Shown here: in pieces, positions 1 through 52,900 of the stretch
How the letters are laid out: every line of letters begins with the position of its first letter
Numbering within the stretch: the stretch's first letter is position 1
Assembly: GCF_037042905.1 (NCBI RefSeq)
Contig: NC_087251.1
Coordinates: forward strand, 16,184,001-16,248,000
DNA from: Lytechinus pictus
Taxonomy: Eukaryota
Length of the DNA stretch: 64,000 nucleotides
Direction of reading: 5' to 3'
The notes under the pieces: generated by a model
The model's database searches: none
What the model saw: only the letters and a program-made list of their open reading frames with translations
What the model was told of the DNA's origin: nothing
Made by a program: the position numbers and the translations under genes

Positions 1-903
1 GCAGGAAAATATGGAACGGAGGCAGGCAAGCGAGATAGTGGTCTCCCTCATGGTTGAAGACAAGACAAGACAGCTATGTAAACATAGAGAGAGCCTCACT
101 GCAAACTAAACCAAATTCAAACCCATGTACAATCCACAATACCATAATTACTATTTCCACCCTAAATCATTGGTGTGCAAATACTAGGCTGGGAGCTATT
201 TCCAACTATATCTTTTTATTTTACACATCCATACATGTTGATTTATGACTATGGCTTCGTATTCAAGCTTAGAATCTTATTAAATGCAGCCAGCTAGTTA
301 AACACATTGCATGAAATAAGGAATTTCGGGTGAATAGCACACATCAAATGGCACAAAGTGAAATTGGAAGTTCACTTTGCAACATGATTGATTAATAGAC
401 TGGGGGTGATAATTATAAACTTTTACATGAGAAAATGCATGGAATATATCAATATAAATTGTCAAATAAAAAAGAAGTGAAAGCCTTGAAGTAAAACTTC
501 TATGATACTCCTACATATTTTGTACACCAAATCAGTTCAGCAAAGTTGTGTGAAAAAAGAGGTTACACCCCCTCCCCCCTAAAAAAAATAAAAAATAAAA
601 AACAAGAAAAAAAACAGAAAGAGAGAAAAGTAGACATTAGAGAGAGAGTAAATATGAAATCATAAGACATGGAAGAGTGAGTGAGAGAGAGAAGAAACAA
701 GAAGTGAGATAATGAAAAAGAGAACAGGAGAGATGGAGAGATAGGAAAAAAAAAGTAAAAACAAGAGAAAGGGGGGGGGGGATAATTTAAAATGTCCAAA
801 TTTGGTATCTGAAAATCCAATCTATGATATCATTTATAACAAATAATTTGCATTTCAATTTCTTGTGCCATAACTTGAAAATTTGATTAAGCATCCACCT
901 ATA

Positions 904-1888
904 CAGTGCGTATCAAAAAAAAGTTTACACTTTGAAAAAGCCCTGGGAATTCATAAATATAAATACAACATGTGGGTAATTTTTTCACATATCATTTTAA
1001 GTTTGGGTCTCATCTATCCAATGAAAGTAAAAGTTTTGACAGAATGTTACACTTGAGTGAGCACTGTCCATTTTTGTAAAGCTCGCAGAAATCTGTTTAC
1101 GCAGAAATGCTCGTTTTCACGCTGCGTCAAGGGGAAAGGGCGAAATCAAACTTACCCTGCGAAACATTTCTCATACATTTCCCTTGCACTTTTAGTCAAT
1201 TGAAATAAAACGGATACATTCAAGCATTTTTTAACAATTTTGCCACCCAAATTGAAATTTCAACATTTAGTAAGCGCAACTTTACCCTTTTGTGCCAGCT
1301 GGATCTGAGGACATAACTGAACCTTAACAACAGTTTATATCAAACATCTCCAGCATTTTTTCACTGAGTTTTTATCATTTAAAGTGGGTTTACATTTCAT
1401 TTTTCATGTAATACTTGTTTCTCCACACTTTTCCCAAGCTTGACAATGATTAACAAAATTAAAATCAAGCCTAAGCCATTTCATGTAAATCACAGCTCAG
1501 TGCAAAGCAAATATCGTCTCGATGGCCTCGGTGTGTGGGGGAGTGGGGTGGGGCGCAATGCACTCTTCGAAGTGTTTTGGGCAAGGAAACAAGTTTAACA
1601 AGGTTAAAGATATCTTCAAATCAATTTTACTAGCTAAATTCCATGTTTTCTTCATGATTAAGGTCTACTTTTATTTGCATAACTATTTCAAAGTTCTGCG
1701 AAAATCATTTTTCACGACATTTTCAAAAGTAAGTGGTGCTCGCTCAAGCGGAAATATTTTTCGACAGTTATATCGTCATTTGCTTAAATGGATCTGTACC
1801 AATGTTAAAATGTGGACAAATCTTCAGGATATTACGTATAATTTTACAGGATTTTTTCAAAGTGTAAACTTTTTTTTGATATGCACTG
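904..1888. mobile_element. Non-autonomous Tc1/mariner-type DNA transposon (MITE)
   Basis: About 36-bp TIRs CAGTGCGTATCAAAAAAAAGTTTACACTTTGAAAAA and its near-complement, flanked by TA on both sides; no transposase ORF. Confidence 0.88.
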
Positions 1889-2286: not shown

Positions 2287-2535
2287 TTAGATCGGGGGCG
2301 CTCCCCACGTGGTATTAGCCGTGAATTTGATCTCCTGGAAGTGGGATTCCATTACAAGACCCCCCTCAGGAATCAGTACAGCCGTCGGCTCACAGTCCCA
2401 ATGTTTGCAAATCGTCTTTGTACCAGTCCAGGCACACAATAGGCTCTGGCTTTTGTCGCGGTTCCGTGCTGCGGGGGCGCGACATCTGATACGGGAGCCC
2501 GTTGCACTGGAAGGGTACGATGCTAGTGGCGAGGA
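2287..2535 (-). CDS. Candidate terminal XRN2 exon, 82 aa (SSPLASYPSSATGSR...TWGAPPI*)
   Basis: cattctctctgcag| acceptor; phase-0 entry matches donor at 7742 and opens the 82-codon ORF; GC-rich island. Confidence 0.5.
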   Translation of the reverse strand, partial: SSPLASYPSSATGSRIRCRAPAARNRDKSQSLLCAWTGTKTICKHWDCEPTAVLIPEGGLVMESHFQEIKFTANTTWGAPPI

Positions 2536-5500
2536 CTGCAGAGAGAATGACATCTCAATCGCCCAATCTTTTAACAGTTATCAGGTTAGGCTTTTTTTCC
2601 TTGCTTTGGGAAGAGTTTGAGAGAAATAGTGTGATGTGCTTGAATGAAAGTCAATGGCTTATGCATACAATCTCTTGTGATAAGTAGAGGAATACAAAGA
2701 CTGAATAATTACTTAAACCACCTCAGCTGCACTTGAAGCACAGGCAAACTGATCAGGACCTATGACTTGGCAAATTTGAAATTCCAACAAGGAGTACACC
2801 TCACACCAGGACAGAGTGCTGCACTGCTGGGATGCTAATGGCAGCATTTTAGATACTTTCAATTCATTGATGAATCTTTTGAAGAAGTACCCAACAGTGC
2901 AGAACAAGACCAAGGGTCCCCCAATCAGTCAGTCACTCCCGACGTTTTCACGCTTCATCTCATGAAGCATTGGCCACTCTGACATAAATAGGCACATGAA
3001 TATGCACAGGGCTGGCGTGGGAGATGCGTCACATGCACATAGGGCAACGGAACCCCCACAATAGCCGACTTCTTCCAGACTGAAAACCTTCAGGAAACCA
3101 GTTAGGATTAGAGACTATCGGCTTTCATCAGGGACAAGATACCCCCCTAATCATGATGGAGAGAAGTGAAAGAGGTTGAGAGGAGAAGCTTATAATGAGG
3201 CTCATAACTGACTCTCTTCAAGTTGAAGAGAACAACACCAATCCTTTGCGGCACTTCGCTCATGGCCGCAGACACTTCATCTTAATTTCTATTTTCTCTT
3301 TTCCTGCGAGCGCATGTTTTTTATGTATTATCATCAGAGTGGCCCCTACGAAGGCTGCTCATGTCAAAGGACAGAAATACCTGTTGGCTCTGCTCCTGTG
3401 GGGGTGGGGGTGATTTTTGACAAGTGGAGCTGCAAATATAGAGGGGGGGGGGTGAAAGTTGAGATACATTACCTATAGTCATGGTAGAAAGAAATAAGGA
3501 GTGTAATTACAGCAATTTGCTGGTGTAGGTTTACGGGCATAAAAGCGCTCCAGTGCCCGCTCTTGAATCTCAAGGACTTGTGGGGATGCGTAGCTAATGG
3601 CATACACAACCACAAGTACCTACTTGTGCGCTTCCTGGCAGGGGAGAGACGAAATTTCATTGGCCCCTCCAACTCGTGTGCTCGGGGATGCCCGATCTTG
3701 GCATACGCCACAGCGATTTTTTGCCCTAAAATGCTACGGCAAACCCGGGTATCATCAGTGATTACTAAATAATAAAATTTGCTCTAAATTCAAATTTAGC
3801 ACTTTGAAAAAAAAATTGCCCTCTCATTTATTGAAATCAGGGGCTCAGAGCTATTCAGAATATCAGTCAGGGCAAGCTCCAAAGAAAACATTGAACTTTT
3901 CTTACGCGCCTCCATTTTATCAAGAATTGTTTATTCAAGGATGCACAGGAAATGGCACAAATTCAGCCCTCTGGATTTATCAAAACTTTACCAACAAAAA
4001 AAATACAATAACAATGGTTCAAAACCCAGAGGAAAAGTGAGATACAAATCAAGTACTGAGCTGGATGATGTTAGATCATAAATTTCAGATCAACTTGACA
4101 AATACACTCACTGTCTCGAATGATCTAAGAGTGTCATTAACAATATCTAGTTATAAAGGCCTTATTGTTGACACGAAAGCATGCAAACATGATCATATAA
4201 ATCAAAGCAAGCTGACAAAACTTACATGTACTGGTATTATCCACAATGCAAATCACACGAAAGGCATACGACAAAACAAAGTTAAAGCTAATTTATTGAC
4301 ATTATCATAGTCTCGGTGTAATATCTATACTGCTATATCAATTTATGAAAACTGTCTGGGGTTGTTTGATTGTGCCAACTAGTAAGAACAACTTGTACAT
4401 GTACATTGCAGACCACTTTCTATCACTTTTATTTACATTACATCAACTAAAGTTATTAGATATAGAGGTTGATGAAATTTCTGACTTTTAATGCACATCT
4501 TTTTTGTGCAAATTGTATTCTCTGTCAAACAAATTGACAAAATGATTCAAAATAGGGCCAATACTCACTTTATTCGAGTTTATCATAAAACTTTGATCTC
4601 ACATTTTGGCACTTAAAATTTCACTTGTTCATAAAATTATAAAAAAATAAAAACTTTTAAAATGCCCTGACAATCAAACGAAAATGAATTTAAATTTAAT
4701 GAATATAACTGAACTGAACGCTAAATAGAATAAAAAATATATATTTTATTTATTAAATGGAATTTGGAAGAATTGTTTTGGTTTGATCCCAGTATACTTA
4801 AATTGGTGGTTTGCATTATTCTGTATTGACTAATTTCCCCAACACTTCTCTGGTTGTAATTTTTTTTTCTTTCTTCTTCTTCACATCTGAAGTTCACATT
4901 CTGTATTACCCTCATTTCATTTATTGGCACAAAGAGAGTTTAGAACACTGTTTTAGCTATGATGTAACAAGATAATATTCACATGGGGAAACTATAAAGA
5001 CAAGGAAGGTGAAATCCTGGAATCCAGTCACATAAGGACAGGACTGGTAAATCAAAGTTATTATTTAACTTCAAATTACGGCAAACTGAGCACGACACAG
5101 CTAATCGGGAAACGCTTACCCTTATATTTTACAGGGATGCGATTTGATTTCAGCCTTCTTTAAATCAGTGTGTTCAAACTTGGCTACATGACAATTAATG
5201 AAGATAAGTAGCCGGTAATTGGAGCTGAGAAGTTGAAATTAAACAGGTAGTATGCATGTATTTCTGCTGGTTGGAGTGGGCCAATAGGATGTTAATAGCT
5301 GATTAGTGTGGTTTCTATTAGATTATACATGATTAAAAGCTTCATGTATGTAACACTGTAGTCAAACCATGCAAACAATATAAGTACAAATACATCCTTG
5401 TGTATGCGCATACATATTCTGTACAATATGCATGAAATAAAATAACACCTTACTAAAAAGCAAAATTAGAAGAAAATTTAACTGATTTTTTTCTTCAAAA

Positions 5501-7741: not shown

Positions 7742-7970
7742 CTGCCAGTCCTGATTCCTATTATCTCTGTTGCCATATTGATTTCCTCCACCTCCTCGTT
7801 GGTAGCCCTGACCTTGTCTCGAGCCCCCGTAGCCCTGCTGTTGGTTATAACCACTATATCCTTGGCTGCTATGTCCCCCATAGCTCTGGGAGCGTTGATG
7901 CTGGTTCTGGTGGTACGCCTGACCCTGCGACTGCTGGTTGCGGTTCCATCCTTGATTGGACTGTTGATTT
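7742..7970 (-). CDS. XRN2: XRN2 tail exon [21 protein letters not shown]...[11 protein letters not shown]
   Basis: ttttttccag|..|gtgaga, 229 nt, phase 2-0; Q/G/N/Y-rich; read-through gives VRH*. Confidence 0.87.
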
Positions 7971-10900: not shown

Positions 10901-13900
10901 ATTTGCCACAGAGAAGTACTGGGGAATACTGAAAAAGATATCATCAATATCACAAATTAAAATATGACATAGAAAACAAAACCAGAGGTACAAAGAGCAA
11001 GAGCAAAAGAGAAATATATATATATTTGTGTTAGATAGATATCGTGATAGAGGAAGGATATACTGAAAATATTTACACTTTCAAGAAAAGAAAAAAAAAT
11101 CAAGCATTTAGATGGGTAGTCCCTTCACCAGCTGTACTTTTAACCCTCTAACATTTCACCACCTGTGTCTTTAATGACTAAATCTATATAAAAGGGCATT
11201 TAAAGCCAAAGTCTGTTATCCTAGTGGTAAACCAACAATTTTAAGTGAAAACCTATACATAAAAAAATCAGGGTAAGCTATGCTCACATTACAATGTTAA
11301 GTTCTGGCAAAGTAAAAACTAACTGTCTTCTTTAGCAACCACCTGTTTAGAAGGGCCACCTGCGGATACAAAGTAATTTTTCCTTGAATGGTATTACCAA
11401 TTGAAATGTATTATAGGAACCTGTCTAAGAAAGACGACCTACTCATAAAGACCATAGCTGGAATTTATCTTTAAAATGCGTTAATTGCATCGAATAAAAA
11501 AAACTAAAACAGAAAGAACACCTGGTAGTTGAGTACCTTTGGAAGAAGTATCTATTACATATTGGTAACCCTCAATTAGATCAATAACTTCAATATGCAT
11601 TCTCAAAGAGGGTTAAAAACAAAACAATACAACAACCTCCAACATGAAACCGAACAACTAACAATAACTTAAAAATACCATGAACTTTGGTAACTAATGC
11701 CTTTTGGAAATGCAAGCAAATGTCAAGTATTTTACAATAACAATTAGTTACAAATACAGGGTGCTACATAAGCACTTGCCCGATTGCCCGGGGCAAGTAA
11801 ACGTTAGAGTCGGGCAAGTGTTTTGAAGTAAAGACCAAAACTACTTGCCCGAATAGGGCAAACAAAATTCTCACAGTAGAATGACAAAAATTTGGGTCGA
11901 TATATTGTGATATTGACCCTAATTTTGCTCATGGAAGGCAAGATAAAATCACTTTAGAAAAATAAATGCAATAACAAGGTAGATAAGTTCATGTCAAAAG
12001 AGAGAAAAAGGTCAATGGTTTATAAAACTGCAAAACTTTCTTTTGAAGAGGTAAACTTTTTTTTTCAAGGATTTTTTCGGGCAAGTGAAATAGATTTTTG
12101 GGCAAGTATATTCCAACTATTAAAAAATGTCCTTGCCCAACCGGGCAAGTGCTTCTAAAAAGTTATGTAGCACCCTGCAAATATCCTTTAAAATTTCTAC
12201 AATAGTATTAGTTTTACAATAGAAGACTTGACAAGACAAGGAGAAAAGCTGTTGTAATTTGAGAGGCAAAGAACATATAGCAACTCATTGTAAAGTCCAT
12301 CCTTCACAAACAAAATACACTTGATAAACTGCATTTTCTTGTAACCTGGGAACACAATAGCCCTTTTCCTTTCCTTCTTCCTGAAGTTCCATGATGAGGT
12401 TTGTGCCCAGTTTGATTCTGATTTCCCCACCTCCTAGGTACCCACCATCCGACTTGCGTCCTATACCATAGTTGCCATGGCAACTGTATTGAAAGGAGAT
12501 AGTGGCTCACTGCACGAGGACCACTTCAGTTGAAGCGTGAGACGAATGTAAGGGTTCCGATCCCTGGCCAGCATCGCTATGCCCGAGAATAGCTTGGGGG
12601 AAGTGTATACCATAAAGCAGTGAAAAAAAACGAGGGTATACGACCTCCAGTGAGAGAGCTTGAGATAGTTGGGGTAGTATTGCAAATTTAATTGCACATA
12701 CATGTATAATCTCTAAACTGTGTGATGGCTCTATCTACTCTATTCTTTAGAAGCAATAATAATAATAAAAAAGAGGATAATTTCACTAAATACAACACTG
12801 CATTGTGACCATTGTAAATATACCAACTTACAACTAGGCACATAGTCATAAGTTAGAATTGTGGTCTTGCTTGAGCAGGAATCATCCACACGTTTTTTCA
12901 TTAAAGTTGAATTAAGAAGGGGGTGAGTTTCCATAAATATAGGTTCTAAATACAATATATAGTATATATAAGTTGTTCAAACACATAGCATGTCACAATA
13001 ATCCTCTGCCTTCTCGATATTTTGCTTTGAAAGTCTATGAAATTAGCCACCTGTCAGAGCCCGAGAGACGAGTGTACAGAAAAGTCACTCGGAGTGTGAC
13101 GTCACCGGGGGGAATTTAGTATAAGAGGTGCCTGAATGTCATACAGAAATGCTATGCAGAGAGAGAAAGATATTTTACAATTTTTTTTCAAAGCAACTCA
13201 AATCAAACAAATAGGACTGATATGTACAAATCTTTACTTTCCCTGTATAAAAAACAGTATGAATAACCACCATGAACTCTTCAATCATGATGTAAGATAG
13301 CAAACAGTGAGTTATTGAATGATATTTTCAATATATATTTTCAATATATGTTCAATCAAGTGAGTAGCTGGAAAGTAATTCCGGCGGCTAGCTCAGCGCG
13401 CGCTGAACGCATAATACTAGTACACACAACACCCAGGCATTGAGTGTACTGTTTTGGTCTGGTATGTCGACTTAGTTCATGGCCGTGTAGCGATCCCCTG
13501 GCGTTTTTTCTTCTTTTCTTTTGTCTTTGACTCCACTTTTATATCCTCTGGATCATTTCCACTCATAGCTCATTCCACAGAACAATCTTGAACCAAACGT
13601 ATAGTATTCTTTCTCGGCCTTCTGAGTTGTTTTCTATATTTAATTACGCTAGGGGTCACCGTCACACATACAAACGCAATTCGGAAGTGAGTTGAAGACA
13701 GAAAGATATATAGTAATTAGTATACATCTCTATGGTTGAAGACAACAAGAACGGTACGGTAGCTCGACAGCTAGCTGCGCCGGAGCGGGCGGCCGGTCGG
13801 CACAAAGCAATTCCGCAACCAACTGTGTTTTTTTGCAAGAGCCGCGTCACACGCGAATAAATATGTCATAATAACACGTCTGCTACGTTATCGACTGGTG

Positions 13901-34900: not shown

Positions 34901-37900
34901 TGACAAGGATCCTTAACCAACAAGGATGGCCCTCGTCTGATCTAAAGAGAAGAATGAAATCAACAGGGTGTTGGGACGCAAGCTTACTCTATCATCCTGG
35001 CTAGTTATTGTTGTCAGTTGAGGGACTAATGTGGAAACAATGGGTGCTTCACACCTGCAAAGGGGCCCCCGATGGGGATCCAAGGGCCCTTGAAGGGCGA
35101 GATGGGAAAGGGAAGCAGGGCGGAACAATGGGCTAGAAATAATGGTGCTATGCATGGGGAGGGGGCAGGTCTTGGAGGCATTATCTAATTGGTCTGATTT
35201 GCTGTATCATGTCAAAACTTCCAATACAATATATCATCCTGAAATGTTTCAACTCACAATTTGCATTTCATGAAAAATTTTAACAGGAAGACAAAACTTA
35301 TTCACAGAATGCACCTGTTTTGACAAAACTCAGCATAAACAGACAATATTTGTATCAGGACTGCATACTGTTTGCCTCGATGGTGTATCTATTCTTAAGA
35401 TATCAACAGTCTATAAAGACTATAGGCAGAGACGTGACCAAAGGGCGTGACGTGACCAAGGGGGGGGGGGGGATACACCTCCTCTTCATTATTCTGAGGG
35501 AGATTGTACCTCCAACTTATATAATACGGGCTGGATTTTTTAAAGCTAAAATTATAAATTCAAACCAATCTTGTAAATATTTCAATTGATTTTGATGGTA
35601 AAATTTCATTTTTTCCATAATTGTTTCCCCAAAATGCTCAGCTCTCTCCCCTTGCTCTCTTGCATAACATAAATCACTCTTTCAGTTTTGGGGCAGTGAA
35701 CTTTGGTGTTTTATCCCCCCCTCCCCACATATAACATAAAATCATTGTTCTTGATCAAGACCACTTTTGTTACTCATCAACAAATTTTGTATTCAGGTGT
35801 ATAGTGAAAGATCCAGAGCTTGATGCTGTATAATGTAGAAAATTATATTAGTAACTGAAGTAATATTCTCATTCCAACCAAGATATATTCATAATGCAAA
35901 ATGGATTGCATTAGGTGAATTCATTATATGATCTGCTTTACCAGCAATGGTAACTGATAGATGTCATAGATATATAGATTAATCATAAATCAATTGTAAA
36001 ACTCTCATATACAGCAGAAGGAATTAGTTTTGATTGTCTTTCAGAATAATCAATGCCCTGGAACATGGCTTTACTTCAAGATAAAACAGATATGTTAATC
36101 ATACATTTACTTTCTTCAACTGTAAAAATGTTCTCCATATATGTTCAGGAAGAAAACGGCAAAAGTTATTCAATCATTAATCAGGGCTATTTTTTTCATT
36201 ATCTCTAGCATTCTTCATACTCCAACACTAAATTAAGAGTTGTTCAGGGACACGAACAGGGGTAATCTATCACTCCAATAACACAAATATGCCCTGCTTG
36301 GAGTGTATTGGTAGGAAATGATTTGATCAAATGCAGTTTCTATTCACAATGAGCATCATTAATCCTTACTCAAGTAGGCAGAATAAACAGAACTTGAGAG
36401 AATAAATCTACTTGCGATTGTCTAGCACTTCAAATCAAAGCTTGTCCATGAATCTTCTCCACATTGGGAGAGGCAAGGAGTCCACCTCATAAGGGTATCT
36501 TAACCATCCGTTGATTCTGCCTTTTTTTTCATATCCCTGATACTGTTAGTTGCTATGGTATTGGCAACGAGAGATGGAAAGGGGTAGCAATTTGGGGTGA
36601 CCCCTTCATGAAAAGTACAGGGTGAAAATAAGACTGAGGAAGGTTGGGTCGTTGCACTATCAACTGTTTTTTGCACATGCATGTCAGCATTCCTGCGGAG
36701 GAAGAAGAGGCGATTGAAGAGGCACTTTGGACTGATTGACAAGTTTCTCCCAATCCCTTGGGCAAACCTTCTTCCCCTTTCAGGCCCCCTTATTTTCTTA
36801 CATTCAGATCTCTCACTGTCTAGCAGTTGACTTGGGTCGGGACGGAGGGGGGGCGTTGGGCTGGGTTCTCTAACTGACCAGCATTGCACTTTGATGACCA
36901 GTCAATGGTCAGAGAAAGAGGATCAAGATGGACATGGGATCATAAGATGGATGTTAAACCCTGGTGTTTGCAGACAACTTGAGTGTAACAATCAAGCCCT
37001 AAATTTTCCACAGGAATGTCCACAGTGCAGGACAAACTGCTTCAATTCCTCTTTTTAGCTACCTGGTGTTTACATACCCAAACAATGAGACAAACAATAC
37101 AACTCATCATGAGTGTCCCCCTTTTAAATAATTGCCATTGCTTTCTTCTACTTCAACAATGCTACACAAACCAAAGCCATCAAAAAAACAGTGTCCCCTC
37201 TAACCAAAGCACACAAACATACAACCAGCTATTAGAGTGAAAGCACTAGGCCACAAAAATAGCTAATCTGTACTCAGCAGAGGCCTTCTATGGCACAGTG
37301 TGTTTCAACTTGGTGGGATATTGGCCATAGTCTCAATAGGGTAAAACTTTCACTAATAGATGAGCGAGACAGAGTTTAAATACGCTGTAGACAGGAAGGT
37401 TTTACTCTGCGTGCAGTAACAAAACAAAAACAAACACAGGATGGTTGATGTGTATCCATTCTTCTCATGCTTTGACCTGACTGGCGTCTTTATCCTAGAG
37501 ACCATTTATAGCATCTTTCTGTCTTTCTAGTATATTAAGAAACAGTTGCATTTCCCGAAAACATTTGGAAAACAAAAAGTGTTTTTGTATTTATGCCATT
37601 GCCTACAGACTGCTTGTCTCCAGTTGAGTTTGACTTCTTTAAAAAGCAAGCCATACAAAAAAGAAAACATTCTTTGGTAATCCCATTTCACCATTTAATA
37701 TCTTTGACGGTGGTCAATTGAAAACCGGCAATTAGTCACCCACACATCCAGATAAGATTTACAGGAACAATTGGCTCTTAATAAGCTCCAAAATGGACAC
37801 TGTAATATCTTATAAGAATGGAATCAAATTGCACCAATACAATTTCCATTATCCTAGCAAGTACTTATGACAGTGCATCTAAATTTAGATTGTCACTATG

Positions 37901-40900
37901 ACTAAAATAGGCAATCATGAAACTGAAATTTTATTTTTGATTTGTTCCTATGAGAACAAAATTTCTCTTTAAATTAGATTCCACTTTACATGATGAAATC
38001 CACACATATACATGAATGTTTATTTAGTTTCCTCTTTAATTTTTTTTTCAAGCTGACATTGTGTAAAACAAACCATTAATTAAACAATATTCATATGAAA
38101 GTTACCATTTATTAGTATTTAATTCACTGATAATCCTTAATCATTAATAAACCCTCCTTAACATAATATATATATTTATAAATGACACTGTTTAAAATTA
38201 GTTTGTTAAAAATATCTTTGTGAGCTATCACTACTCTCCACTCAGCTCATTTGACTTTAACAATTTTTTTATTGCTTAATTGAATATGATTTAAGTATTT
38301 CAAGACGAAGCAAGATACTTAAAGGTAAAAGAAAGTAATTGCAGCAAACAATTATTTCACGATAAAGCTTTTAAGACCAATCAATAATTACCACAATATT
38401 ATCATAGATCTAGATCTGGTACACTGAAATCAACTCATCTTTGTGAAATCATGAAATCTTAGCTGAAAACTGATAATTCTGATAACTGACATAAAAAGAA
38501 TATGTTGGGCAGTGTATTAATATTGCTTGGAAAAATACATGACATTTTAAGGAATTCTGTGGTTATTTTGCTCATTTCTCAGCAATTACACATTTTTTTC
38601 AAGAGCCAATTAGCAAATATTCTTTATTTATACATGCAAACACTTGGGGTCATTTTATTGGATTCTGTTCGAACTCACTTTCAGGTCTTAAAACAACTGG
38701 TATTCATCTTTGAAGAGATCTGAAAGTGAAGATAAAACATCCAACATTATTTACAAGGGGCTTAAAGTTTTCTCTACATGTTGATTTTTTTTCTCATTTA
38801 TGATCCTTAAACATCACCCCCAAAAGAGAAACCATTAAATTGACTACATAAATGGAAAGAAATGAGGAAAAAATTAGTGTATGGTTGAATATTCAAGATG
38901 AATTCTGTGATACTTGATTAATTCTTTCCAGAAGCAAAAAAGAAAAAAAATATCAGTAAAATTGGAATAATAAACATTTCTTGGTACTCATGTGTAAACG
39001 CATTCTGGACATGTACGAGTGCACACAGATTCCAAGTAAAGTAATCCTGTTGCAAGCCAGTCTAGTTTATAATAATAATAATATTCCGCATTTATATAGC
39101 GCTTAACACATCGGAACGACGTCTCTAAGCGCTTTACAGATATATTATTACCCCGGTCATCGGATCCTTGCATGCCCGCATACAATGTATGCACCTTCTC
39201 CACTCCCTGGGGAGCATTCCAACAAGTGTTCCAAGACTCAATTGCTAGGCATACTACATAGGCTTTCGCATCCTACCGGGTACCCATTTAACACCTGGGT
39301 GGAGAGTGGCAAATTGTGGATTGACGCCTTGCCAAAGGACGCTAGGCCATGGTGGGATTCGAACACACGACCCTCTGATTACAAGGCGAGAGTCAGAACT
39401 GCTACACCACGGCGCTTTCGTTTATAGAGTTGTATTTAATTGAAAGCAATTGCAATTGAAGGAACTGAGGTAATCTTTAAGAAGAGATATCACAATTTTA
39501 CATGTGATGAAACTTTAATATTTCATTTTGAAAATGTATGGCTTCTATTTCCTAATACTTTCAAAACTGCCTTGTTGTATATACATGTACATGGGAAGTT
39601 CAACTTGACATAAAGTTGGTTTATAAATAATACAGTAATAAAAAAAAAATTTGAGAGAAAGAAATCAATGAAGAATCACAGACTTTTAGAGTTAGATTTG
39701 TGACACCATAAAATGCCACTTTCTTGCCAAAAAAAAATTATTTCACCTGTGTATTCATCACTATTAATCATCAGACACATCTGAAACCATTAAAAAATTC
39801 TAATTTATGAAATGAATATCATATGACATTATGAAATAGAAACATTAGAAATTCATAGCTTTGTTATTCTTTTGATAGATTTCCATCAAACCCTAATTCA
39901 TACATGTGTGTTTCTCTAAATTTTCTGCTTTTTTTAAAACCAACTTACTGTCAGGGTGGACTTCTTTTTAAGCATACAGTGCCGACATGACAAAGGGACT
40001 ATAATTTAAATTGACCATTACGCCAATGAGAAACAGACATGTGGTGGTGAAAACGTATCGCATTTGAGAGGATAAAGTATTGGAAATATCAATCGACTTA
40101 GCATAGACTATAATAAGATTCGCAAACAATTTAGCATGAAACAATGGCAATCAAATGAAAAACATAAGCACCTAAAGGGAAGTTCCTTTTTAGCGATGAT
40201 TATCCTGCATGAAATTAAAATATTTGGTTACTTTTGGTATCATATGAAAGCACAATAAACTTCCTATATAACTTTTCCCACGTTTGTGTACCGGTATTGA
40301 AATTACCTCGGGCATTGAAAAATCAAGAAATTTTTAAGATTTGGCATAAATTTGAAACAAGAAAATCTGCAACGTACTATAAATTGCATAAGAAAATGGC
40401 ATACTTGTGTATTTTAACTAGCCTACTCATCACCATATGTCAGGATTTATGTTTACTTGCTGAGGGTCCTGTGATACAGGATCTATCTATCTATCTATTG
40501 ACATTGTGTTTATCCAAATAATGTTGAGAAAAAAGTCAGAAATGGTAAAAGGACCTAAAATATACTTCTGAATAAGCAACACAGTTGTCGAAGCTATTGA
40601 TGATGGTAAGAGACCTGGGCCCCATCTTACAAAGTTACGATTGATCCAATCAAAGTAACTCTAAGGAAATCCATTAGTGTCATAATTTTTCTACAGGAAA
40701 TTTGCAAAATGTCCTTTGTAAACAAAGGAGAACACACCAAATTGTCAAGAAATCAATGAATTTATGGATATACATTCATATCTAGAATTTCTTTTAAACG
40801 AACATGCATTTTATATGTTGACTTTACTGGCTTTCCATAGTTGCGATTGATTGGATCAATCGCAACTCTTTGTAAGACGGGGCCCTGGATTTAGTCCTTT

Positions 40901-43900
40901 GAGTGGCAACAAAGAGAAACAACAAACTTAGTTCCATTGGAACACACATACTTACTGAAATGAAGGAACAACCATTCGAAATGTCTACAGTATTACTAAA
41001 TTTATCTATGAAATCTTAAGGTATGTTCAGTTTATGATGTAGTGAATCTTTTCAACAAACACTGCTATCTATCTGCTTTTTTTTTTTTGGTATGCATATT
41101 TTAGTTGGATATTAGGTCATATGGAACAATCCAAATTCCCCCTTTAAAAAAACCGCACTACAAAAAACAAACAATATAAATATAACACTGAAACAAGAGC
41201 AAAAACTCAAAGCCATGGACAAATAAAATTCTTAGAAAGTTACTTAGATTTAGAACATTGTAAGCATACCTATTCAGCTTTTGGCATTACATATACTTGC
41301 AAAACTTTTCAAAAACCTCAATATCAGTGGCAAAGTTGAATTCAATATCTAAACAAAAGTTGAGGCTCAAATGCGCAAAGGACCAAATTCACAACATTGC
41401 CCTCCTGGACCATGTCGCATCTACAAGTATAGCAACTTTACCATCCAGTGTGTTGGATCAGTTGGTAGAGCGTTCGACTCACAACCAGGAGGTTGCGAGT
41501 TCAAGCCCAGGCCGTGTCAGATCAAAAGATGGAGTTGCCGCTACCATGTTTTGTGTTCAACAATTCAAGGGATAGAGCTACGTCCATCTGACGCTGCACA
41601 GTGACTGCCAAAGCCCACAATCAATTTGGCAAATAGAATTTTCTGAGTTATTCTATTTTAGATTTCATTTCAAACAATGAATATGGATTTTTTCCGTTTT
41701 ACATATGTATCCTTGCTTTTAACTGTCATAGTACATGTAGTTGCCATTGGAAGGTAACATTACCATAATACTAACTTTTGTGCAAATACCACCCTGGATT
41801 GAAGCCAATACTATTTGTGTTTTGGTTTGAAGCACTGTGCCATCTCTAAACTTTTTGCCAGTTAGTGTCAGAACACGGTAAATGCAACATCTAGGCCACA
41901 ACCAACCCAACAACTAATTGATACAATACACAGGGGAAAAAATCAAACAAGCATAAGAATGGAAAATTCATCCAAATCTGTAATGAATTAAAAACAAGTT
42001 ATGATTTTTAAAGTATTTTATTAGTTTACTTTTATTTCATATGTAATTTTTTTGTTTTTCACATTTCTTTTTTGTTGTATTTAACATCTAAAAATATCAG
42101 CAACATAATTTTTTATTCCATGCTGTGACAACAAAATAATCATACTATGAATTGGGTTTGAGACACATATATTGGATTTGTAAATAAAATTTTGCACAAT
42201 TTTGGTCAAGTGCAAAATGTTCAAGTACAAACCAATCATATAATCATAAAATACTACGTTCATTGACAATAAATGGCATTTGACCTTGATCATCCGACCT
42301 AAGACTTGTCAGTGATACTTGATTACCTCTATATCCACATTTTATATACTACATCTATAAACTTTGAAAGTTATGACAGCAATCTAATAATTAACTCCAA
42401 AATGGCCATAGTTCATTGACCTTAACTGACCTTTGACTTTGGTCATGTGACCTGAAACTCGCATGAGATGTTCAGTGACACTTATTACTCTTATGTCCAA
42501 GTTTTATGAACTACATGTAGATCCATACACTTTCGGAGTTATGATGGTTATTCAAGAATTTCCCCCAACATGGCCAAAGTTCATTGACCTTTGACCTTGG
42601 TTATGTGACCTGAAACTCGCACAGGAGGTTCAGTGATACTTGACTACTCTTATGACCAAGTTTTATGAACTAGATCCATACACTTTCGAAGTTATGATGG
42701 TAATTCAACTAATACCCCAAACATGGCCAAAGTTCATTGACCTTAACTGACCTTTGACCTTGGTCATGTGACCTGAAACTCGCACAAGATGTTCAGTGAT
42801 ACTTGATTACTTTTATGTCCAAGTTTTATGAATCAGATCCATAAACTTTTAAAGTTATGATGGTAATTAAACAAATACCCCAAACTTGGTAAAAGTTCAT
42901 TTACCCTAAATGACCTTTGACCTTGGTCATGTGACTTGAAACTCAACCAGGATGTTAAATAATACTTTATCACCCTTATGGCCAAGTTTCATGAACTAGA
43001 TCCATTTACTTTTGAATTTATGATGACATTTCAAAAACTTAACCTTAGGTTAAGATTTTGATGTTGATTCCCCCAATATGGTCTAAGTTTATTGACCCTA
43101 CATGACCTTTGACCTTGGACAAATGACCTCAAACTCAGGCAGGATGTTCAGTAATACTTGAATAACCTTATGTCCAATTTTCATGAACTAAGTCCATATA
43201 CTATCTAAGTTATGCTGTCATTTCAAAAACTTAACCTTCGGTTAAGATTTGGTGTTGACGCCGCTGCCGCCGTCGGAAAAGCGGCGCCTACATGTACATG
43301 TATAGTCTCACGCTGCTATGCAGGTGAGACAACAAAACGATTCCGCAATATATAGCCCCATAGCATATTACATAGATCTCCTGAATAAAGACATGCCCAA
43401 TCAATAAACCTATTACTCCTTTGAAAGCAATACCATAAACATGCCTACTTGCAATTTAAATGTTTAATGAATGAGGAAAGCTAACCTTCACTTGATATCC
43501 ATATATTTTTAATGATCTTTTACAACTTACTTATTTTGTTTTTATTGTTCCTCTTTATTTTACCACTTCCTCATTATCTTATGTATACTTATTTCTTGCC
43601 TTTTACATACATATTTCTTAACTCAGTATTTACAATTGTCACTGCTTTTAATGTTTGAAATATGTATCAATTGTTTGTACTTTGCATGCATGACCAATTC
43701 AGCAATTTGGCTGCGACTCTTGTTTTTTACTAAACCTTGAATTGAACCACATACCCAGGAATCGCAAATTCGGTCTCAAAAGTTGTGCAAGACTTTTGGA
43801 AATGTTGTATTGCACAATACTTTGAAAGGGGGGATAAATATTAAAAGCGACTTATGATTGAATCCTACCTTGCCCACCATATCCTTGCCTCTGGTTGTAT

Positions 43901-46900
43901 CCTCCTCCTCCTCCTCCTGATTGCTGCATTAGGGGTGGGGCACCCAAGAGAGACTGATCATTCCTTCCTTGGTCTGAACCATGGTGTCTGCAAAAGCAAC
44001 AATTAAAATTGAATTTTAAAAACCAAATCATATAGTTTGAACAACTAAAATTATATATTTTTAATTGAGTCAATGAAATGAAAAAATACATATATAATAT
44101 ACCTGGAGAAAGATATACATAAACATTATACATACACTTTATACAATGAATATTTTCTATTTTTCTTAAACTTCAACACATCATTAGCAGGCAATACACG
44201 TATACATACAAATAAACACCACATGAAAAATACATTGGTAGGTTCAAGGCAAAAAAAGGACATGAAATCCAGTATGAAAACATTTCAAAGTATTATTGAA
44301 ATGATTATCTGATCGTATACTCTGGATCCACATGTTGTGTGCACCATACATGTATTTACTGTGACAGAGTTAATATATTCTTAACCTGTGTAACACGCAC
44401 AAGCTTTTAAATATGAAATCAAAGAAGTTTAAACTATGGCTATGCTAAAATGCAATGTCTATTTATATTAAAGAAAATGAGAATAAACCATTTCATCTGG
44501 ATATTTGGTGTAAATAAAGTATGTAAAATTGGTACAATAGCAAATCTTTATCTTGACTGTTTACTGAAGAATAGACACATTATTTCAACTGGATATTTGT
44601 TGAAAATGAAGTATGTAAAAGTGGTACTATAGCACTATGCTGCTTGACCGTTTATTTGAGAAAAGATGCATTCATGATGTTCATCTGGATGTTTGTTACA
44701 AATGAACTGTGGCAAATCTTTATCTTGATGATTTTCAACTGGACTTTCAACTAGATATTTGTTGCAAATTAAGTAAGTAAAATTTGGGACTATAACAGAT
44801 CTTTATCTTCACTGTTTATTGGAAAAAATACATTAACTAAATCATCTGGATCTTTGGTGCAACTGAAGGTGATAACATTTGTACTAGAGGCTGGTGCACA
44901 TCCATTTCTTTATTATCAATCGAAGACACATTAATAATTCACACAGAAATGAAAAATGAGGGAGGAAAAAAATGATAAGAAGTGTTGTGCAGATATTTCT
45001 GTTGAACAGTTGATTATCTCTCCTCATCTGGTAACTGAAAAACTGATTAAAATGACCTCAGACTTCTTTGAACTGTTCTTTTGAGTGTTTAGTACTTCCA
45101 AAGGTAATGCTAAAGGATACTCCTAAGAAGGACAAATACATCAGTCAAATCTTAATCAATACACAAGTACAGATATACACTGAGCATCACAGCAGGATAA
45201 CTATGACCCATTTCGGTCAAAATGCAAGTGAATAGATGGAAAGAACAAAACAGAAATACATGAATTACTGATTAAATACATAATTATTTCATGCCTCTGG
45301 AAAATATTTTAATGGGGACTTGGTGAATGGATGCTGGTGACAATACTATCTGAAAAGAAAAATAAATGGGAAAATTCCAACATAATTGCAGGAACAGCAC
45401 AATTCTCTGGAAATCAACCTCACCTCACTTTGGCTAAAGTATTCCAAAATTAGTAATATAAAAATATTTGTTAATCCTAACATGTAAAGATGAATTCTGA
45501 CCAAGAGATTTATATCTCAGAAAAAACTGTCTCAAGTTGACTGTAAAATAGTAGTAATTACAAAGAATTTGTTTAGGATGCAAGTCTTTGGAATCACCAA
45601 AATGATCAGCTATCAACTGTAATTTTTGCAGGTAATGTGCACTGGACATAGATATACATGTCATATATGGGACTACACTCAAATTTTCAGCCCATGCATT
45701 TCAGCTGCTTTGGAGTCAACTTTTGAATGTTAAGGCATCTGAAGGGCAATCCTTAGTAGAGGATCTTATTATAATAATATTCTTCTTAAACTCAAACTTA
45801 TTGTTTTCACAAAAGGAGTTTCCTTTTAAATTTCTACAATATGTTTGTCTTCTCCATTCAGTACTCTTAACTGACCTTACCATAATCTGCAACTAACTGG
45901 AAAAAATAGCCCCATGAACAGCAGCAACAAATACAATCACTACCAATACAGACACCCTGTCTTATTGTAATTAAGTGTGTACACTCGATTAGTGTTCAAT
46001 CTGTATGTATGTGAATATTTCCATAAGAGGAGATATACATCTATCCTAAAATAAACAGAGCTATTCAATACATAACAAGCATTTTGTCAAAACAACAACT
46101 ACCAGTATTGCATATCATTTTATTATTGAAAAGACAGAAAAATACTAACTCTCTCATTAAATACTTTTCTAACCAAGTAATAGCAAAACTGAAGCATCTC
46201 AGTTTTTATATATAACACTATTTTCCCAACAAGATAAATCCCCCTATCCAACCCAGCCAACTCTTATAATACCATCAAACTTTATTGACCCCCCCCCCTC
46301 CTCTTTTTTCTCTCTATTCATCTCCTTCTCCAACCCTGATTACATGACCTAACCATACACCCAGACGATGTCTCCATAGTACCTACTTGGTATTCTCTCT
46401 TCTCCAACCCCAACCACATTACCCCTTACCATACCCCCAGACTACCTTGAAAGACTTGCTTGGGGCTGGCTAAGGCATGCTGGCATGGCATGATTGCTAG
46501 GGAGGTAGTGGGACTGACTGGAACAAGGCGGGGCACCTTGCTGAAACAGGGGGAGGGACGACTTGTATTGGTCCACAGGTGCACCTTGGGTGCCTTTTAT
46601 AAGCTGTTGTTTCCATTGGTTGAAGAGCTGGGTTGCACCGAAATATTCCTGGACATCTTGGTCCCTGGAATGAAGGAACAGGGTTTCAGGAAAGACATAG
46701 GGAAGGGGAGAATATATATATGTACGTGGTCAAAATACATCTAAAGGATTAATGATCTATCAATGGCAAACTATATATTTATAAGACTTTATTTTAATGC
46801 AGACATTTTATATTCATTTTGATTAGTGAAAAAAAAAATTATAGTATGTTTTGCAACAGGGACAGATTCCAGTCCCTAAATTTTCTTGCTTTATACATGC

Positions 46901-49900
46901 TGTATCTATTACTGAGAGCATAGTGAAAAGAAATGGTCGCTCAGCAAATATATCAATATAACACAAATTTTGGATTCAATATTGTTAATCATTGTCTCAT
47001 GTCACTGCTGTTTGCTTAAATATATTTTACCAATCAATCTAATTAGCTTCCAAAATTGCTGGGATATACTTTACCACTGTGCTAAAATACAAAATGACTT
47101 GAATGCTGTATTATTTATAAACTATATAAAGGTTATATTCACCAAGATAGAAAAATAAAATTTTGGAAGTATATATCACGTTAAATACACCTAACAAAAA
47201 ATACAGACCTACAATGGAGAAGATAGAATTATATAAAACAAAGTATCAGAACAATGTTGTGATGATGATGAAGATAATGATGGTGGTGGTAGTGGTAAAA
47301 GAAATGTACATGCAAGCTAATGTACGTTTGTTTGAATGATGTATAAAAAATGAGAAAATACATGAAATCTTGTAACAAAAGAAGAAACATATATATTATA
47401 TGTGTAAATGTTAGAATAATGAAAACATTTTTAAAATTATGTACAATATCTGAAACAAATTCATGTAAAAGATAAAATAACCTGAAATATAAAAGGAAAA
47501 CATGAATATTGAACACCAAAACATGATGCAATGCCATGAATATAACTCACAAAAATGATGATCAGTAAAAACACAAAGCGGTGAATAAACACACACAAAA
47601 TAATATTTTAAGAATTGAAAAAAAATAATGTTCTGCTGTAATTACATCTGAAATAGAAAAGTGAAAAATTGTATCATGTATCAAATGAATAACAAGAGGC
47701 AAATGCCATCTCAAATACACAGAATATTCAAGTATTTGCAATTGACATTTCAATAGAGTTTGAATTGTAATTAGAATGAAGACATTTTACAGAATAGTAC
47801 TGTAATTTATGAACTTGCAAATCACAAAACAACATGGAAAAAAAGAGAATGAACATGTAACAAGCACATACATGCATCTTTGAAGGTATCTAAAAAAAAA
47901 AAACATAAAAAAAAACTCATAACTCACCAAAAATACTCATAACTCACCAAATATAATAGAAACTTTTGAAATATTAATAAATACCAGATACAAGTAATCT
48001 AAAAATTCAGTATATAAGCATGTAGTTCTTTCATTTAAATTTTTTTTTTTAATGACAATGATATAAAAGTCACAATTTTACTATACCAATTAAAAAGTAA
48101 CATGCAAAAGGCATTCTCACAAAGATATTCTTGAGTTTAGCACAACCTTATGATTGACTGGAAAATGGCAAGGAAATTATTTTTCTTGATTGCACAAGCT
48201 GATGTTCAAATGAGCAGATATTCCTGAGAAAGTCATTTGAGCTTTACTGAGAAAGTCATTTGAGCTTTACAAACAGCTTAAATATGAAAAATATCAGGTC
48301 TGTAAAATAAACCCTGGTCAAAACTATCATCAAAGTATCAGAAATTTTTATAAGAATTAAGCGTATCTTGGTGAAATCAGCTATTATATTACTTGAAATA
48401 AAATGTATTGAATGTCCAAACAATTTTTTTCAAATGACAAAGCAATTTCCAGAAGAAAATGCAACAACAGCTCAAGATTTCATTATCATTTGCACTTTTA
48501 TTTTGATTGTGGAAATTCAATAAATTCCAATTTAATTCAATTTTGTAAAAAAGTAAAGATGAGATTGAAGATTTAATTTTGATGCCTGTGTTTTAGAAGG
48601 ATGCCAAGGAATGATTCAATGATCCCGTCACATACTGTTATTAAACGATATTATCAGAGAAACCAATGCATATATTTATTTCAAATTGTTTAATTGTTCA
48701 TCAGATGGTTTATAGATGCATATCCAAGTTGACAGGCATCCTTATCGACTCGAATCTCGGACATGTTGAAATGGAATTTGCAACGGTAAAACACATCCTG
48801 ATGAAATTGCTAGACAGAGGCAGACATTACCATCAGATGGTAGCATGTACGTGACAGAGCCTTGAACTGTCAGGGATGTACAGATTTTGAAATGTGGAAG
48901 TTATAAAGATATCTATGATTTCATACAGGTACCATCATTTAGTTCATTGACACCCTTGATCAATCATTTGATGCTGTAAGGAATTATTTCTATGTATACT
49001 TAGAAATAAGACAATTGAAAAATATCTCAAGATGTTAATCTTTTTTCATATATCAGGTAATTTATTGTTTGCTTCAGGTGTTTGCAAATTATTTGACTGA
49101 TAGATATGTCTTTTTTTAACCATATTCCAGTACTTGTCATAGTTTATACTTTTTGTTGTTACAATATATTAATGTTATTATACTAACAATAGGACCACAT
49201 TTGAAATAAGCCTTGTGGCTTTCATGGGCTATCCTGTCAATGTATTCTTCAAATTAATTGTAATCACCTGTGATATTCTTTATGAATAAAATCATTCAAT
49301 CACATAAGGATATAAATCCAATCAGCCTACATCTTTTCCTAATGTAAAAAACACTAACAATCAAATTATATTTCAATGAAAAGGAGTATGGTTTACTTGA
49401 AACAGGAAGCAAATACATGTATGGAGGGGAATTTTCAAGCACGCAACTCATTCTTTTTATTTTCTGGGGTTACTCTTTACAACTTATTGCCCAAATCGGC
49501 AACAATACATAAGCTTTAACATTTTAATGAATGGGAATTTTCCAGGGCTCCTTTTTTTTAAAGTTTCCATGGCTCTTTTGAGCATTTCGAAGGGAAAGTC
49601 GGCCACCCCCCCCCCCAGCCACCGTATATTTTTTCCCGTTTTCAAATTTACTTACTACACTCTATTAAAATGGAATATGTCAAAATAATGAGAAAAACTC
49701 ATGAAGTTAGTATAAAATGAAAAATGTTTGGATGATCAACTTTGAAAAATTGAAAGAACAGTTACATCAGTTAAACGGTTACCTTGCTGGAAAATAACCA
49801 GTGTCAACACCATGCCTTAGGGATAATGAGAGGGGAGAAGAAAAGCATGCAAAACAATAAGTTCTTGTACATCATGCAGATGTAGTAGGCACGCATATTT

Positions 49901-52900
49901 TAATGCTGAATCAGTGGATTCCATCACATTTACTCCAGAGCAGAAAACCTGTTGCATAAAAGATATTATTATGGCAACTTTGCTATTTAATGGTAACTGC
50001 CATGGAATCATTGATATCCAATATCTGTTTAACATTGTTACCATGGTAGTTACCTAATGGATTGTTAAGTTACCACAATAGAAACTTTCATGAAATGGGG
50101 GGGGGGGGGCAGATTAAGCTAAACACAGAACCCTACCTCACACTCAACATCAGCCATAATCTTTCCCCGAGTACAATTCTGAATAGAACCCTATACAACC
50201 ATATGCCTAATCCCTCTCCAGAGAAAGAATAGAACAATTTTCATAGGAGCAAATGTGGGGTTGCTGAATTATGATATAACATGCAATATAATGGATACAT
50301 GCAATAGTTCATGGCTATGAAATATTTTATATTTTAGAACATCAATACCCAATGACATGGACTTAAAGTGCTGCAGCTAATTCTCAGAAGCACAATGTGT
50401 CAGAAAAGGATATTGGCATGCTGGTTTGTTTCAAAACAAATTTCTATGCCGTCTTCCAAAAAATTCCAGTGATTGAAAATCAATGTCACATTGAGATTGA
50501 TTGAACTCTGATCAGAAAGTGCAAGTAAACAAGAGAGATCAGTCTCAAGATGAGATGAGATGGATATGAATCATAGCAATCAAAAACAAGAATAGCCTCT
50601 AGGAACTGTTGCATGAAGACTTGCGTTTAAATGCAACTCAAAGAATCAAAGGCAAGTCTTAAATGCATGCTTCCGATTTGTTACATATCAAGTTGTGCAT
50701 TACTTTTTAAGTTGAGTTGTGATTGATTTTAACTTTTTATCAATGGTCTTACCTGATCATCCTCTGAGCAGCACTGGTATCCAATCCATCCCTGTATCCA
50801 CTATTCCTCTGGAATCCCAGCTGAGGTCTGTATCCATCCCTTCCACCACCACCACCACGACCACCATAGCCCAGGCCTCCTCTACCACCGTAACCCCGTC
50901 CACCGCCACGCCCACCTCGGTACCCGTTGGCATTCATGAAATCCTCGGGCTTCAGCACCTTGTCTGGCACCCTGTGAAGTTATTCAAAAACATATAGCAT
51001 GGTAAACTCAAATGCTATGCTACGATTTACATGTAAATGTATTCCAAACTAAAGAATTTTAATCGTCATTATTCTCAAATACTGGTTCTTATTGTCTTCA
51101 TTTGGTATTCATGACGATGATAACTAAATAATAATTCATACTTCTCAAATAGGTAAACGACTTAGCTCCAGTTTAGCTCCATGTCTTGTCCTGTATAACA
51201 TTAACCCGCATGTCAATTTCTATTTTCCATACATAAAAAAATTGTAAAGTTGATGAATGACAAATAATAAAACACATTATTTCACTCATTGAGCCAATAC
51301 ATAGAATAAACATCATAAAATAAACATATTATAAAATAATTCATTCTAAGCTGGTTGGCAAATACAAATAATCAAATATAAAATGAGCATCATTTGAAAC
51401 TTCAAAGTACTACAATAAACACAATTCAAAGATAAATTTCAAATTCCTCACACATTACATGAATGTCAACTTAACTTTGAAATAAAATGAGAATAAATAT
51501 ATAGAGCATTTAAAAATGCAAATCTGTATGAAGTTACTCACTTGGCTCCGGGTAACCTCTTAGCCTCAAATATGAAACCTTGTGGGTAGGTAGGGTCACG
51601 GAATGTCACTCTGGTGAAGAAAAAGTGAGATTTTATTGAGCTATAACAGTGACAGTATCAAACAGCACAGAGAGAGAAGTATTAACTTTATTAGCCCACA
51701 TATATTTAGAAGTAGCACATTTGTACAGGCTCAGTCAGCAAAACCAGGTACTGAATTTCGTGTGCATTATGAAGCTTCTTGAAACATATATAATCACTAG
51801 ATTAGCCTTTTCTAAGGGAAATCTATGAAACTATTTTAATTTAGAATTTAGATATTTTACAGCATGTTTTGCATATAAAAATTACCTGACAAAATAAATA
51901 ATCAAGAAGAATATCTAAGTTTGGAATGACTGTTGATTCAGTGCATCATATTTCTTTATATAGTCTGAAGTGTCATGAGCATCATATCTGGTGCTCTTGA
52001 AAAGTTAACAATTATCATTTCCTTCCTTTTTTAAATTTCAAAATACTGTTATGATACATACCCTAAAACATAGCTCTCTGGAATGTCTCTCAGTTGAGGA
52101 ACAGGTGACCGATGAAGTCTGCCAAAGGTGAAATTCAATTAGAAAAGGGATGAAAGAGGAAAAGAGGAGACAGAGGAAAGGAAAATTTCCAAGAGAAAAT
52201 ATTATACAGATATTGCCTACCTAGAGTTTGAATATAACATTTCCTCTCCCCGACGGAGTTATATTTTTCCCAAGGGATTATATTTTGCCCGAAGCGCGCA
52301 GCGCTGAGGGAAAATATTATCCCGAGGGAAAAATATAGCTTCGGAGGGGAGTTGAAATGTTATTTATTAAAACGATAGACCAGGCAATATCTGTTATATT
52401 ATATAGTCTATGTGGATTCGCCATCAGAAATTGCATTCATCATCTGGCTCAAACCCGAAATTCTTGCTACAGCTCTGATCCATCTACGTCATAATAGATT
52501 TTGTTTTAAATACATCAAGCGCGTTCTTCATGCAATCGACGCGTTAACATTAGCGCGTACATTAAATAAACTACCTTGTTACGCAACTTGTATGCAGCGA
52601 GTGACGTCACCTTAGTGAATATAACGCCGCAATTGAAAATACAACGCAGTATATTCCCTGAGGTGACGTCAAAACCTAGAATATAACAAATGCGATCCTC
52701 GCAGCTATGGTCACGTGATGGCGTATTGACCTATCACTGATTCGAATCTACATAACCTATGTAATATAATCAATTATTTGCATGCATTATGAGATATTGT
52801 TCTTATCTTGTACTTTTATTAAGTATTAGCATTTGTTTTTAAGGATGAATGAAGGTTTTACAAATATCCAAAGACTATAGTGTTAGGATTTTATTCAACT

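Follow-up and report, generated by a model that had tools for sequence, protein, structure and literature searches.

Two conserved cassette exons in the C-terminal tail of sea-urchin XRN2, and no support for an extended array of alternative exons

How many alternative exons does the tail of XRN2, the torpedo nuclease, hold in the sea urchin Lytechinus pictus (Lp)? The question arises from a stretch of 64,000 nucleotides (nt) on contig NC_087251.1 of assembly GCF_037042905.1 (positions 16,184,001 to 16,248,000), here called the window, in which the 3' half of a sea-urchin XRN2 gene runs on the minus strand. A preliminary description, made from the letters alone, had pointed to 13 acceptors in the long introns downstream of the RGG-box exon, each opening a frame in phase with the preceding donor, and had proposed an array in which cassette, terminal, and poison exons remodel the C-terminal tail. 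Our answer is a smaller one: very probably, two of the 13 proposed exons are real cassettes and the other 11 are chance coincidences of an AG with an open reading frame (ORF) in single-copy intronic DNA.

Protein matches and chaining of a gene model confirm both the XRN2 identity and the minus-strand anatomy first proposed for this DNA. A protein search with the catalytic-domain ORF, which includes intron flanks, gave sea-urchin XRN2 as its top matches (L. variegatus, or Lv, 86%; Diadema, 83%; S. purpuratus, or Sp, 80%). With three urchin proteins, tblastn places ~20 minus-strand exons between 63999 and 7742, and the exons in the window are 86-100% identical to the Lv XRN2-like protein. The matched proteins bear PF03159 and PF17846 (XRN_N and Xrn1-helical regions) and belong to the XRN2/Rat1 5'-3' exoribonucleases; the tail motifs YRPQLGF, WNRNxQSQGxAYxQNQ, and ...QRRY are also found in hemichordate, mollusc, and vertebrate XRN2. 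The C-termini of the Lp RefSeq XRN2-like models X1-X3 are letter-identical to translations of the window through exon B, and X1 (P0125) chains exactly onto it with canonical splice sites; the window therefore holds L. pictus XRN2 or something nearly identical. In all, 18 echinoid XRN2 models were compared: Lv X1-X5, Lp X1-X3, seven from Sp (the current X1-X4 and three older ones), and three from Diadema.

Two Cassette Exons

The micro-exon that begins at 49815 and the large cassette that begins at 46664 are real, conserved alternative exons, and both are already annotated in RefSeq. After ...AAQRMIR, the models continue with HG(V/F)DT(G/S)Y(F/V)P(A/T), which is the exon from 49815, and/or with RD(Q/R)DVQEY...QASLS, which is the exon from 46664, or with neither. 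Models with the micro-exon are Lp X1/X2, Lv X1/X2/X4, and Sp X1-X3; Lp X3, Lv X3/X5, and Sp X4 lack it. RefSeq has four combinations for Lv (both, large only, micro only, and none), and three (both, micro only, and none) for Lp and again for Sp. Both cassettes are thus conserved in Lv, Sp, and Lp; the micro-exon is known from these three species, and a homologue of the large cassette also stands in two of the three Diadema models.

RNA data consisted of three raw-read runs from one study, picked by species label and sampled at ~6% of each, together with one contig set (X1, not to be confused with the RefSeq isoforms), over window positions 27000-46999. The joint of the large cassette to exon B (43987/46446) is carried by 2, 1, and 3 reads in the three runs, six in total, and by one contig (depth 28.1). 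A rough comparison of neighboring junctions suggests that the large cassette is included in about a quarter to a third of transcripts. The covered stretch excludes the micro-exon and the skipping junctions, so skipping rests on the RefSeq models, where skipping forms are seen in three species, while the reads show inclusion of 46664.

The donors of the two cassettes score 3.1 and 0.9 by position weight matrix (PWM), against 7.1-12.8 across 20 constitutive donors. The very weak value is that of the large cassette, which has a strong acceptor (10.1).

What would the large cassette add to the protein? Its start, DxDV..GA..LFNQWKxQ (the first ~20-25 residues), is conserved and the remainder is variable; 22 columns are invariant across five cassette sequences, concentrated in the first 20 residues. 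From this five-sequence alignment, AlphaFold2 predicts one helix at residues 2-25, with a predicted local distance difference test (pLDDT) of 62-79 over the block and 12 residues at 70-90, and disorder thereafter. A word-based protein search with the cassette found echinoid clusters only (2 of 50 candidates). Among longer proteins, this search and one with exon D matched just the Lv and Sp RefSeq clusters (two) and brought up no further isoforms derived from transcripts, which, the method being word-based, is weak evidence. Nothing was found on the helix motif in a literature search at the level of listings.

The Lp cassette is nine residues shorter than that of Lv and 10 shorter than that of Sp. 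It lacks a nine-residue stretch of Lv (EGAAPHPSIAPQA vs GTQG), and Sp has a similar insert; the difference is in frame and falls in the variable part.

As a mechanism, we propose that real alternative exons occur only in the first tail intron, as one 33-nt micro-exon and one 219-nt cassette. Both are multiples of three with weak splice sites, and they would be included or skipped independently. This could yield up to four isoforms, which differ in the insertion of 11 and/or 73 residues after the RGG box and before the Q/G/Y/N-rich tail; the large cassette would contribute a conserved helix-forming motif and then variable P/Q/S-rich sequence. The proposal that alternative exons remodel the C-terminal tail stands for 49815 and 46664, with RefSeq behind both and reads behind 46664, and has no support at the other 11 sites.

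The Eleven Remaining Candidates

The remaining acceptors lie at 36888, 35088, 34262, and 31010 (after donor 43869), at 29597, 27260, 21315, 12483, and 10620 (after 29730), and at 2535 and 578 (after 7742). They appear to be matches that arise by chance in ordinary intronic DNA. For the 14.1-kb, 21.8-kb, and last introns, an extended array of alternative exons, whether cassette, terminal, or poison, has no support, and neither do the graded tail length and the NMD (nonsense-mediated decay) autoregulation that it was to bring about. It is important to note that the positions had been read accurately: an AG precedes each of the 13 on the minus strand, donors 50753, 43869, 29730, and 7742 are correct with their phases 2, 1, 2, and 0, and the five quoted ORF lengths (129, 58, 43, 32, and 82 amino acids, aa) are reproduced in the phases given for them.

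Phase-matched acceptors do not, however, exceed chance. The four tail introns contain 2692 AGs on the minus strand; a phase-matched ORF of at least 30 aa follows 469 of them (17.4%), compared with 16.9% for the two wrong phases. With the limit raised to 58 aa, the two shares are 4.7% of intronic AGs and 4.5%, so that ORF length behind the phase-matched sites equals the background. There are 453 sense ORFs of at least 30 aa, 193 of them phase-matchable; for the antisense control the counts are 464 and 211. Since sense equals antisense and matched equals wrong phase, phase matching carries no information. Even a good acceptor score does not set the candidates apart: 62 of the 359 intronic AGs with a PWM of at least 3 open a phase-matched ORF of at least 30 aa, and the listed sites are therefore not special. 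Six of the 11 acceptors fall below 3, against a leave-one-out median of 6.5 for constitutive acceptors, and five reach it (35088, 10.3; 31010, 8.4; 27260, 6.3; 12483, 3.2; 578, 12.2).

The introns of the catalytic half had been said to hold no comparable islands. This is mostly a matter of intron length (11.6 kb vs 50.4 kb), as ORFs of at least 30 aa occur at 7.6 per kb there and at 9.0 per kb in the tail introns.

In the RNA, raw-read depth is 0 in the bins of 36888, 34262, and 29597 in all three runs, with contig set X1 giving 1.75 in the 29597 bin; for 35088 it is 0.03 in one raw-read run and 1.9 in the contigs. Reads are thus absent or nearly so at these four sites, against 23 at the flanking constitutive junction. 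The only partner of donor 43869 among the joints listed is 29763. The X1 contig leaves the RNA-covered stretch after exon C and so uses neither 29597 nor 27260. None of the 11 sites occurs in any of the 18 echinoid models or in the proteins matched by exon D (two clusters). In a Pfam search of 16 ORFs no candidate ORF reached the cut-off for any family, the only match being a reverse transcriptase of a long interspersed nuclear element (LINE), and searches of the whole window with Rfam (gathering thresholds) and ARAGORN gave 0 matches each.

Could some of the 11 nonetheless be rare or tissue-specific exons, or poison or alternative terminal exons degraded by NMD, that were missed at low depth? 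Five of the acceptors do score 3 or above, the reads cover, at low depth, only 20 of ~52 kb, and human XRN2 provides a precedent: in the accessible part of PMC12455821, its minor exons 16a and 29a are validated, and 29a, in the disordered C-terminus, makes up 4.7% of transcripts per million. We nevertheless hold such exons to be highly unlikely here. The 62 of 359 well-scoring AGs make the candidates unremarkable, the antisense control equals the sense strand, 36888, 34262, 29597, and 35088 have zero or near-zero reads, the ORF behind 36888 is frameshifted in a relative, and a poison or alternative-terminal isoform appears in 0 of 18 models.

Several points weigh against reading the locus as two cassettes amid chance coincidences, and should be kept in mind. 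One is the human precedent itself, with its validated minor extra exons, of which 29a lies in the tail (PMC12455821, accessible part). The RNA is shallow, with 4-11 counts per run at exon junctions, and its stretch leaves out 21315, 12483, 10620, 2535, 578, and the micro-exon. The joints discussed are those listed, and 88 further joints lie beyond them. The bins of 31010 and 27260 take their RNA depth from repeats, and contigs and RefSeq protein models alike under-report NMD isoforms. With regard to the large cassette, the AlphaFold2 model is of low confidence overall (mean pLDDT 56, from five sequences), and the helix motif is a putative partner-binding module.

Constitutive Exons and Truncated Models

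The disordered C-terminal tail is encoded by the RGG exon (A), the constitutive exons B, C, and D, and a short last exon just past the window (Table 1). Exon A is 98.6% identical to the Lv protein, exon C matches Lv and Sp at 12 of 12 residues, and exon D is 95% identical to Lv. The tail introns measure 6765, 14105, 21759, and 9162 nt. The first three agree with the sizes originally proposed; the last had been put at "at least 5 kb" and comes to 9162 nt because the terminal coding exon begins 1421 nt past the window edge. That conserved exon (GGNQGGGGYPKPPGYSQRRY*) was searched for within the window and is not present there. The real terminal exon is therefore none of those suggested (2535, 578, or one at the window edge), and both 2535 and 578 were ruled out for that role, as the conserved ...QRRY* exon sits outside.

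Where does the annotated L. pictus protein end? Models Lp X1-X3 all stop at GRIQS*, a read-through of donor 43869 (window 43855-43987), and all start at MNGIIHPCC, without the first 54 residues. The missing start suggests that these models are truncated; indeed, they look truncated at both ends. Exon B might instead double as a composite terminal exon, with intronic polyadenylation past donor 43869 and a tail ending in GRIQS*, and the agreement of all three models on this stop is what speaks for it. We regard this as distinctly unlikely, given that the joint from B to C (29762/43868) is carried by 4, 11, and 8 reads in the three runs and by one contig (depth 93.2), which is normal splicing: 23 reads and a contig join 43869 to 29763. 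Further, exons C and D are intact, as is the last exon, with 95-100% identity to L. variegatus; all five Lv and seven Sp models continue to QRRY, and the loss of the first 54 residues favors the truncated-model explanation. The depth downstream of exon B (42.3-43.7 kb) comes from a repeat with 163/192-nt units, its reads carrying fixed differences. The only clusters of molecule ends, at 42811 and 42816, lie within this repeat, and the reads splice past the point in the intron after 43869 where the Lp models end.

The repeat itself, at 42309-43258, is a tandem array just downstream of exon B with an RNA depth of ~30-39 on the XRN2 strand. Because of the fixed differences, its reads come from other copies.

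Intronic Islands and NK2 Neighbors

If the candidate ORFs are not exons, what are the islands that hold them? They had been called non-repetitive, and this holds for eight stretches that together cover 9 of the 11 non-annotated sites (all but 29597 and 578): each occurs once in the 812-Mb assembly, save for side matches of ~40-70 nt in one of the eight. The islands were searched individually, as a search with whole introns was swamped by one ~1-kb repeat family. Their GC content is 0.38-0.47, against 0.346 for the tail introns.

For the island behind 36888, the bin (36338-37004) has zero read depth in four of four RNA runs, and the 133-aa ORF has one library match, a 206-aa ORF. By tblastn with three related ORFs (P0136-P0138), which differ mutually by frameshift, the homology from 37107 to 36411 shifts among all three minus frames and meets stops in the window; the stretch is therefore conserved as DNA, not as protein, and is not a coding exon. 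We also ruled out the 133-aa ORF as a gene or transposon fragment (single-copy, no Pfam match, frame-hopping in the relative). The island at 34132-35206 has a raw-read depth of 0 to 0.03, and that at 2287-2577 has long ORFs on both strands.

Beyond the window edge that faces the tail, a homeodomain scan of the genome placed two NK2-class exons on XRN2's contig, each followed by VAVPVLV(K/R)DGKPC (Table 1). The nearer one has its best PDB matches in TTF-1/Nkx-2.1 homeodomains (E 2.5e-33), and as it lies on the plus strand, this gene and XRN2 are convergent. Both exons fit the published xrn2-nkx2 microsynteny, and the adjacency is conserved here: in the accessible part of PMC11175523, xrn2-nkx2.1 adjacency is reported across deuterostomes, spiralians, and corals.

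The islands could thus be cis-regulatory modules of nkx2.1/nkx2.2 within the 3' introns of XRN2, with XRN2 as the bystander. We offer this only tentatively and think it somewhat unlikely. An Nkx2.1-type exon lies 36 kb away and a second NK2-type exon 107 kb away, in an arrangement kept in deuterostomes, spiralians, and corals (PMC11175523, accessible part); the large XRN2 introns are those nearest the nkx2.1 side; the islands are single-copy and richer in GC; and 36411-37107 aligns to its relative in a non-coding manner with zero RNA reads. That one relative, however, may be very close, and introns often contain unique patches that are richer in GC. A literature search, judged partly from listings, found no paper that connects NK2 enhancers with the introns of XRN2, and the terms "cis-regulatory," "bystander," and "conserved non-coding" occur 0 times in the accessible part of PMC11175523. 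Such modules would explain the islands and not the acceptors, and are therefore compatible with our preferred reading of two cassettes and 11 chance coincidences.

Feature Coordinates and Repeats

Table 1. Exons, islands, and neighboring elements of the XRN2 locus, in window positions unless another sequence is named
Feature	Position	Strand	Remarks
Exon A, RGG-box	50753-50971	-	219 nt; donor phase 2; exact P0125 chaining
Micro-exon	49783-49815	-	33 nt; frame kept; AG and GT at its borders; acceptor cctaAG, PWM 3.4; donor 3.1
Large cassette	46446-46664	-	219 nt; 73 codons including split ones; frame kept; AG and GT at its borders
Exon B	43869-43987	-	119 nt; donor phase 1; constitutive
Exon C	29730-29763	-	34 nt; donor phase 2; constitutive
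Exon D	7742-7970	-	229 nt; Q/G/N/Y-rich; donor phase 0; constitutive
Last coding exon (GGNQGGGGYPKPPGYSQRRY*)	L002 8579-8517, begins 1421 nt beyond window position 1		Strong acceptor; encodes ...YSQRRY*
Island with 129/133-aa ORF behind 36888	36411-37107	-	Single-copy; GC 0.447; acceptor PWM -0.8
Island with pseudo-acceptors 35088 (58 aa) and 34262 (43 aa)	34132-35206	-	Single-copy; no Pfam family
Island with pseudo-acceptor 12483 (66 aa)	12285-12506	-	Single-copy
Island with pseudo-acceptor 2535 (82 aa)	2287-2577	-	Single-copy; GC 0.467; not a terminal exon
Decayed LINE-type reverse-transcriptase element	17332-19608	-	RVT_1, E 4.3e-25 and 9e-08; in the 21.8-kb intron
Nkx2.1-like homeobox exon	L004 1338-2258, 36 kb beyond window position 1	+	Homeodomain scan of genome
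NK2-type (Nkx2.2-like) homeobox exon	L005 1256-2191, 107 kb beyond window position 1	+	Homeodomain scan

Several repeats deserve mention for anyone annotating this locus. The LINE-type element lies in XRN2 orientation, is split into at least three ORFs, and is the source of the longest sense-strand ORFs. Arrays of 21-nt units (GGTCCGTGT-type) at 25422-25521 and 26182-26490 give ORFs of 110-150 aa on both strands and are therefore a source of false "long ORFs." An element of ~1 kb at 900-1893, with terminal inverted repeats of ~45-60 nt, contains a 135-aa plus-strand ORF and has at least 39 other copies at 92-96% identity (40 scored of 8650 first-look candidates). Two tandem copies of a 257-nt unit (29965-30496) stand ~200 nt upstream of the 34-nt exon C, where reads form opposite-strand joints at 30346/30514.

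A 338-nt interspersed repeat on the plus strand at 39080-39420 has 4166 first-look candidates genome-wide, 40 of which were scored and are 98-100% identical; a related stretch lies inverted at ~27500-27806. RNA depth over the repeat reaches 1000-1700, reads join both copies on opposite strands, and it has no tRNA or Rfam match.

RNA depth at 27.0-28.3, 39.0-39.7, 40.3-41.0, and 42.3-43.7 kb was considered as a sign of novel exons and ruled out, because most of the reads are 95-99% alike with fixed differences and the spots that were checked (39.1-39.4 kb and the tandem repeats) are repeats.

Comparison with Known Systems

For XRN2 biology little changes, since public gene models already include the two real alternative exons, and the proposed array is a by-product of seeking coincidences of AG and ORF across 50 kb of intron. 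Gene models of L. pictus could be corrected at both ends. The helix-forming motif of the large cassette is conserved between urchins as far apart as Lytechinus and Diadema and could be a regulated partner-binding module in the tail of the torpedo nuclease. As the locus adjoins nkx2.1 and nkx2.2, the XRN2 introns are also a reasonable place to look for NK2 enhancers. Should enhancers lie there, they would give a mechanistic reason for an xrn2-NK2 adjacency kept since before the cnidarian-bilaterian split, and would explain why only the introns facing nkx2.1 are large.

The closest parallel for that arrangement is the genomic regulatory block, a concept exemplified by slc25a21 and mipol1, the bystander genes in the pharyngeal cluster. 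Here, likewise, a housekeeping gene stands beside developmental NK2 homeobox genes with large introns facing them; the difference is that an enhancer or conserved non-coding role is putative for the XRN2 introns.

Among the urchins, the RefSeq isoforms Lp X1-X3, Lv X1-X5, and Sp X1-X4 have the same two cassettes at the same position after ...AAQRMIR and in the same combinations. The Lp models differ in stopping at GRIQS* and in lacking the terminal exon along with C and D, although genome and RNA reads show all of these in use. In human XRN2, exon 29a alters the disordered C-terminus and is thus the kind of event that had been proposed for the urchin gene (PMC12455821, accessible part). The two systems part in their outcome: human exons 16a and 29a introduce stop codons (same source), whereas the urchin cassettes keep the frame and add sequence.

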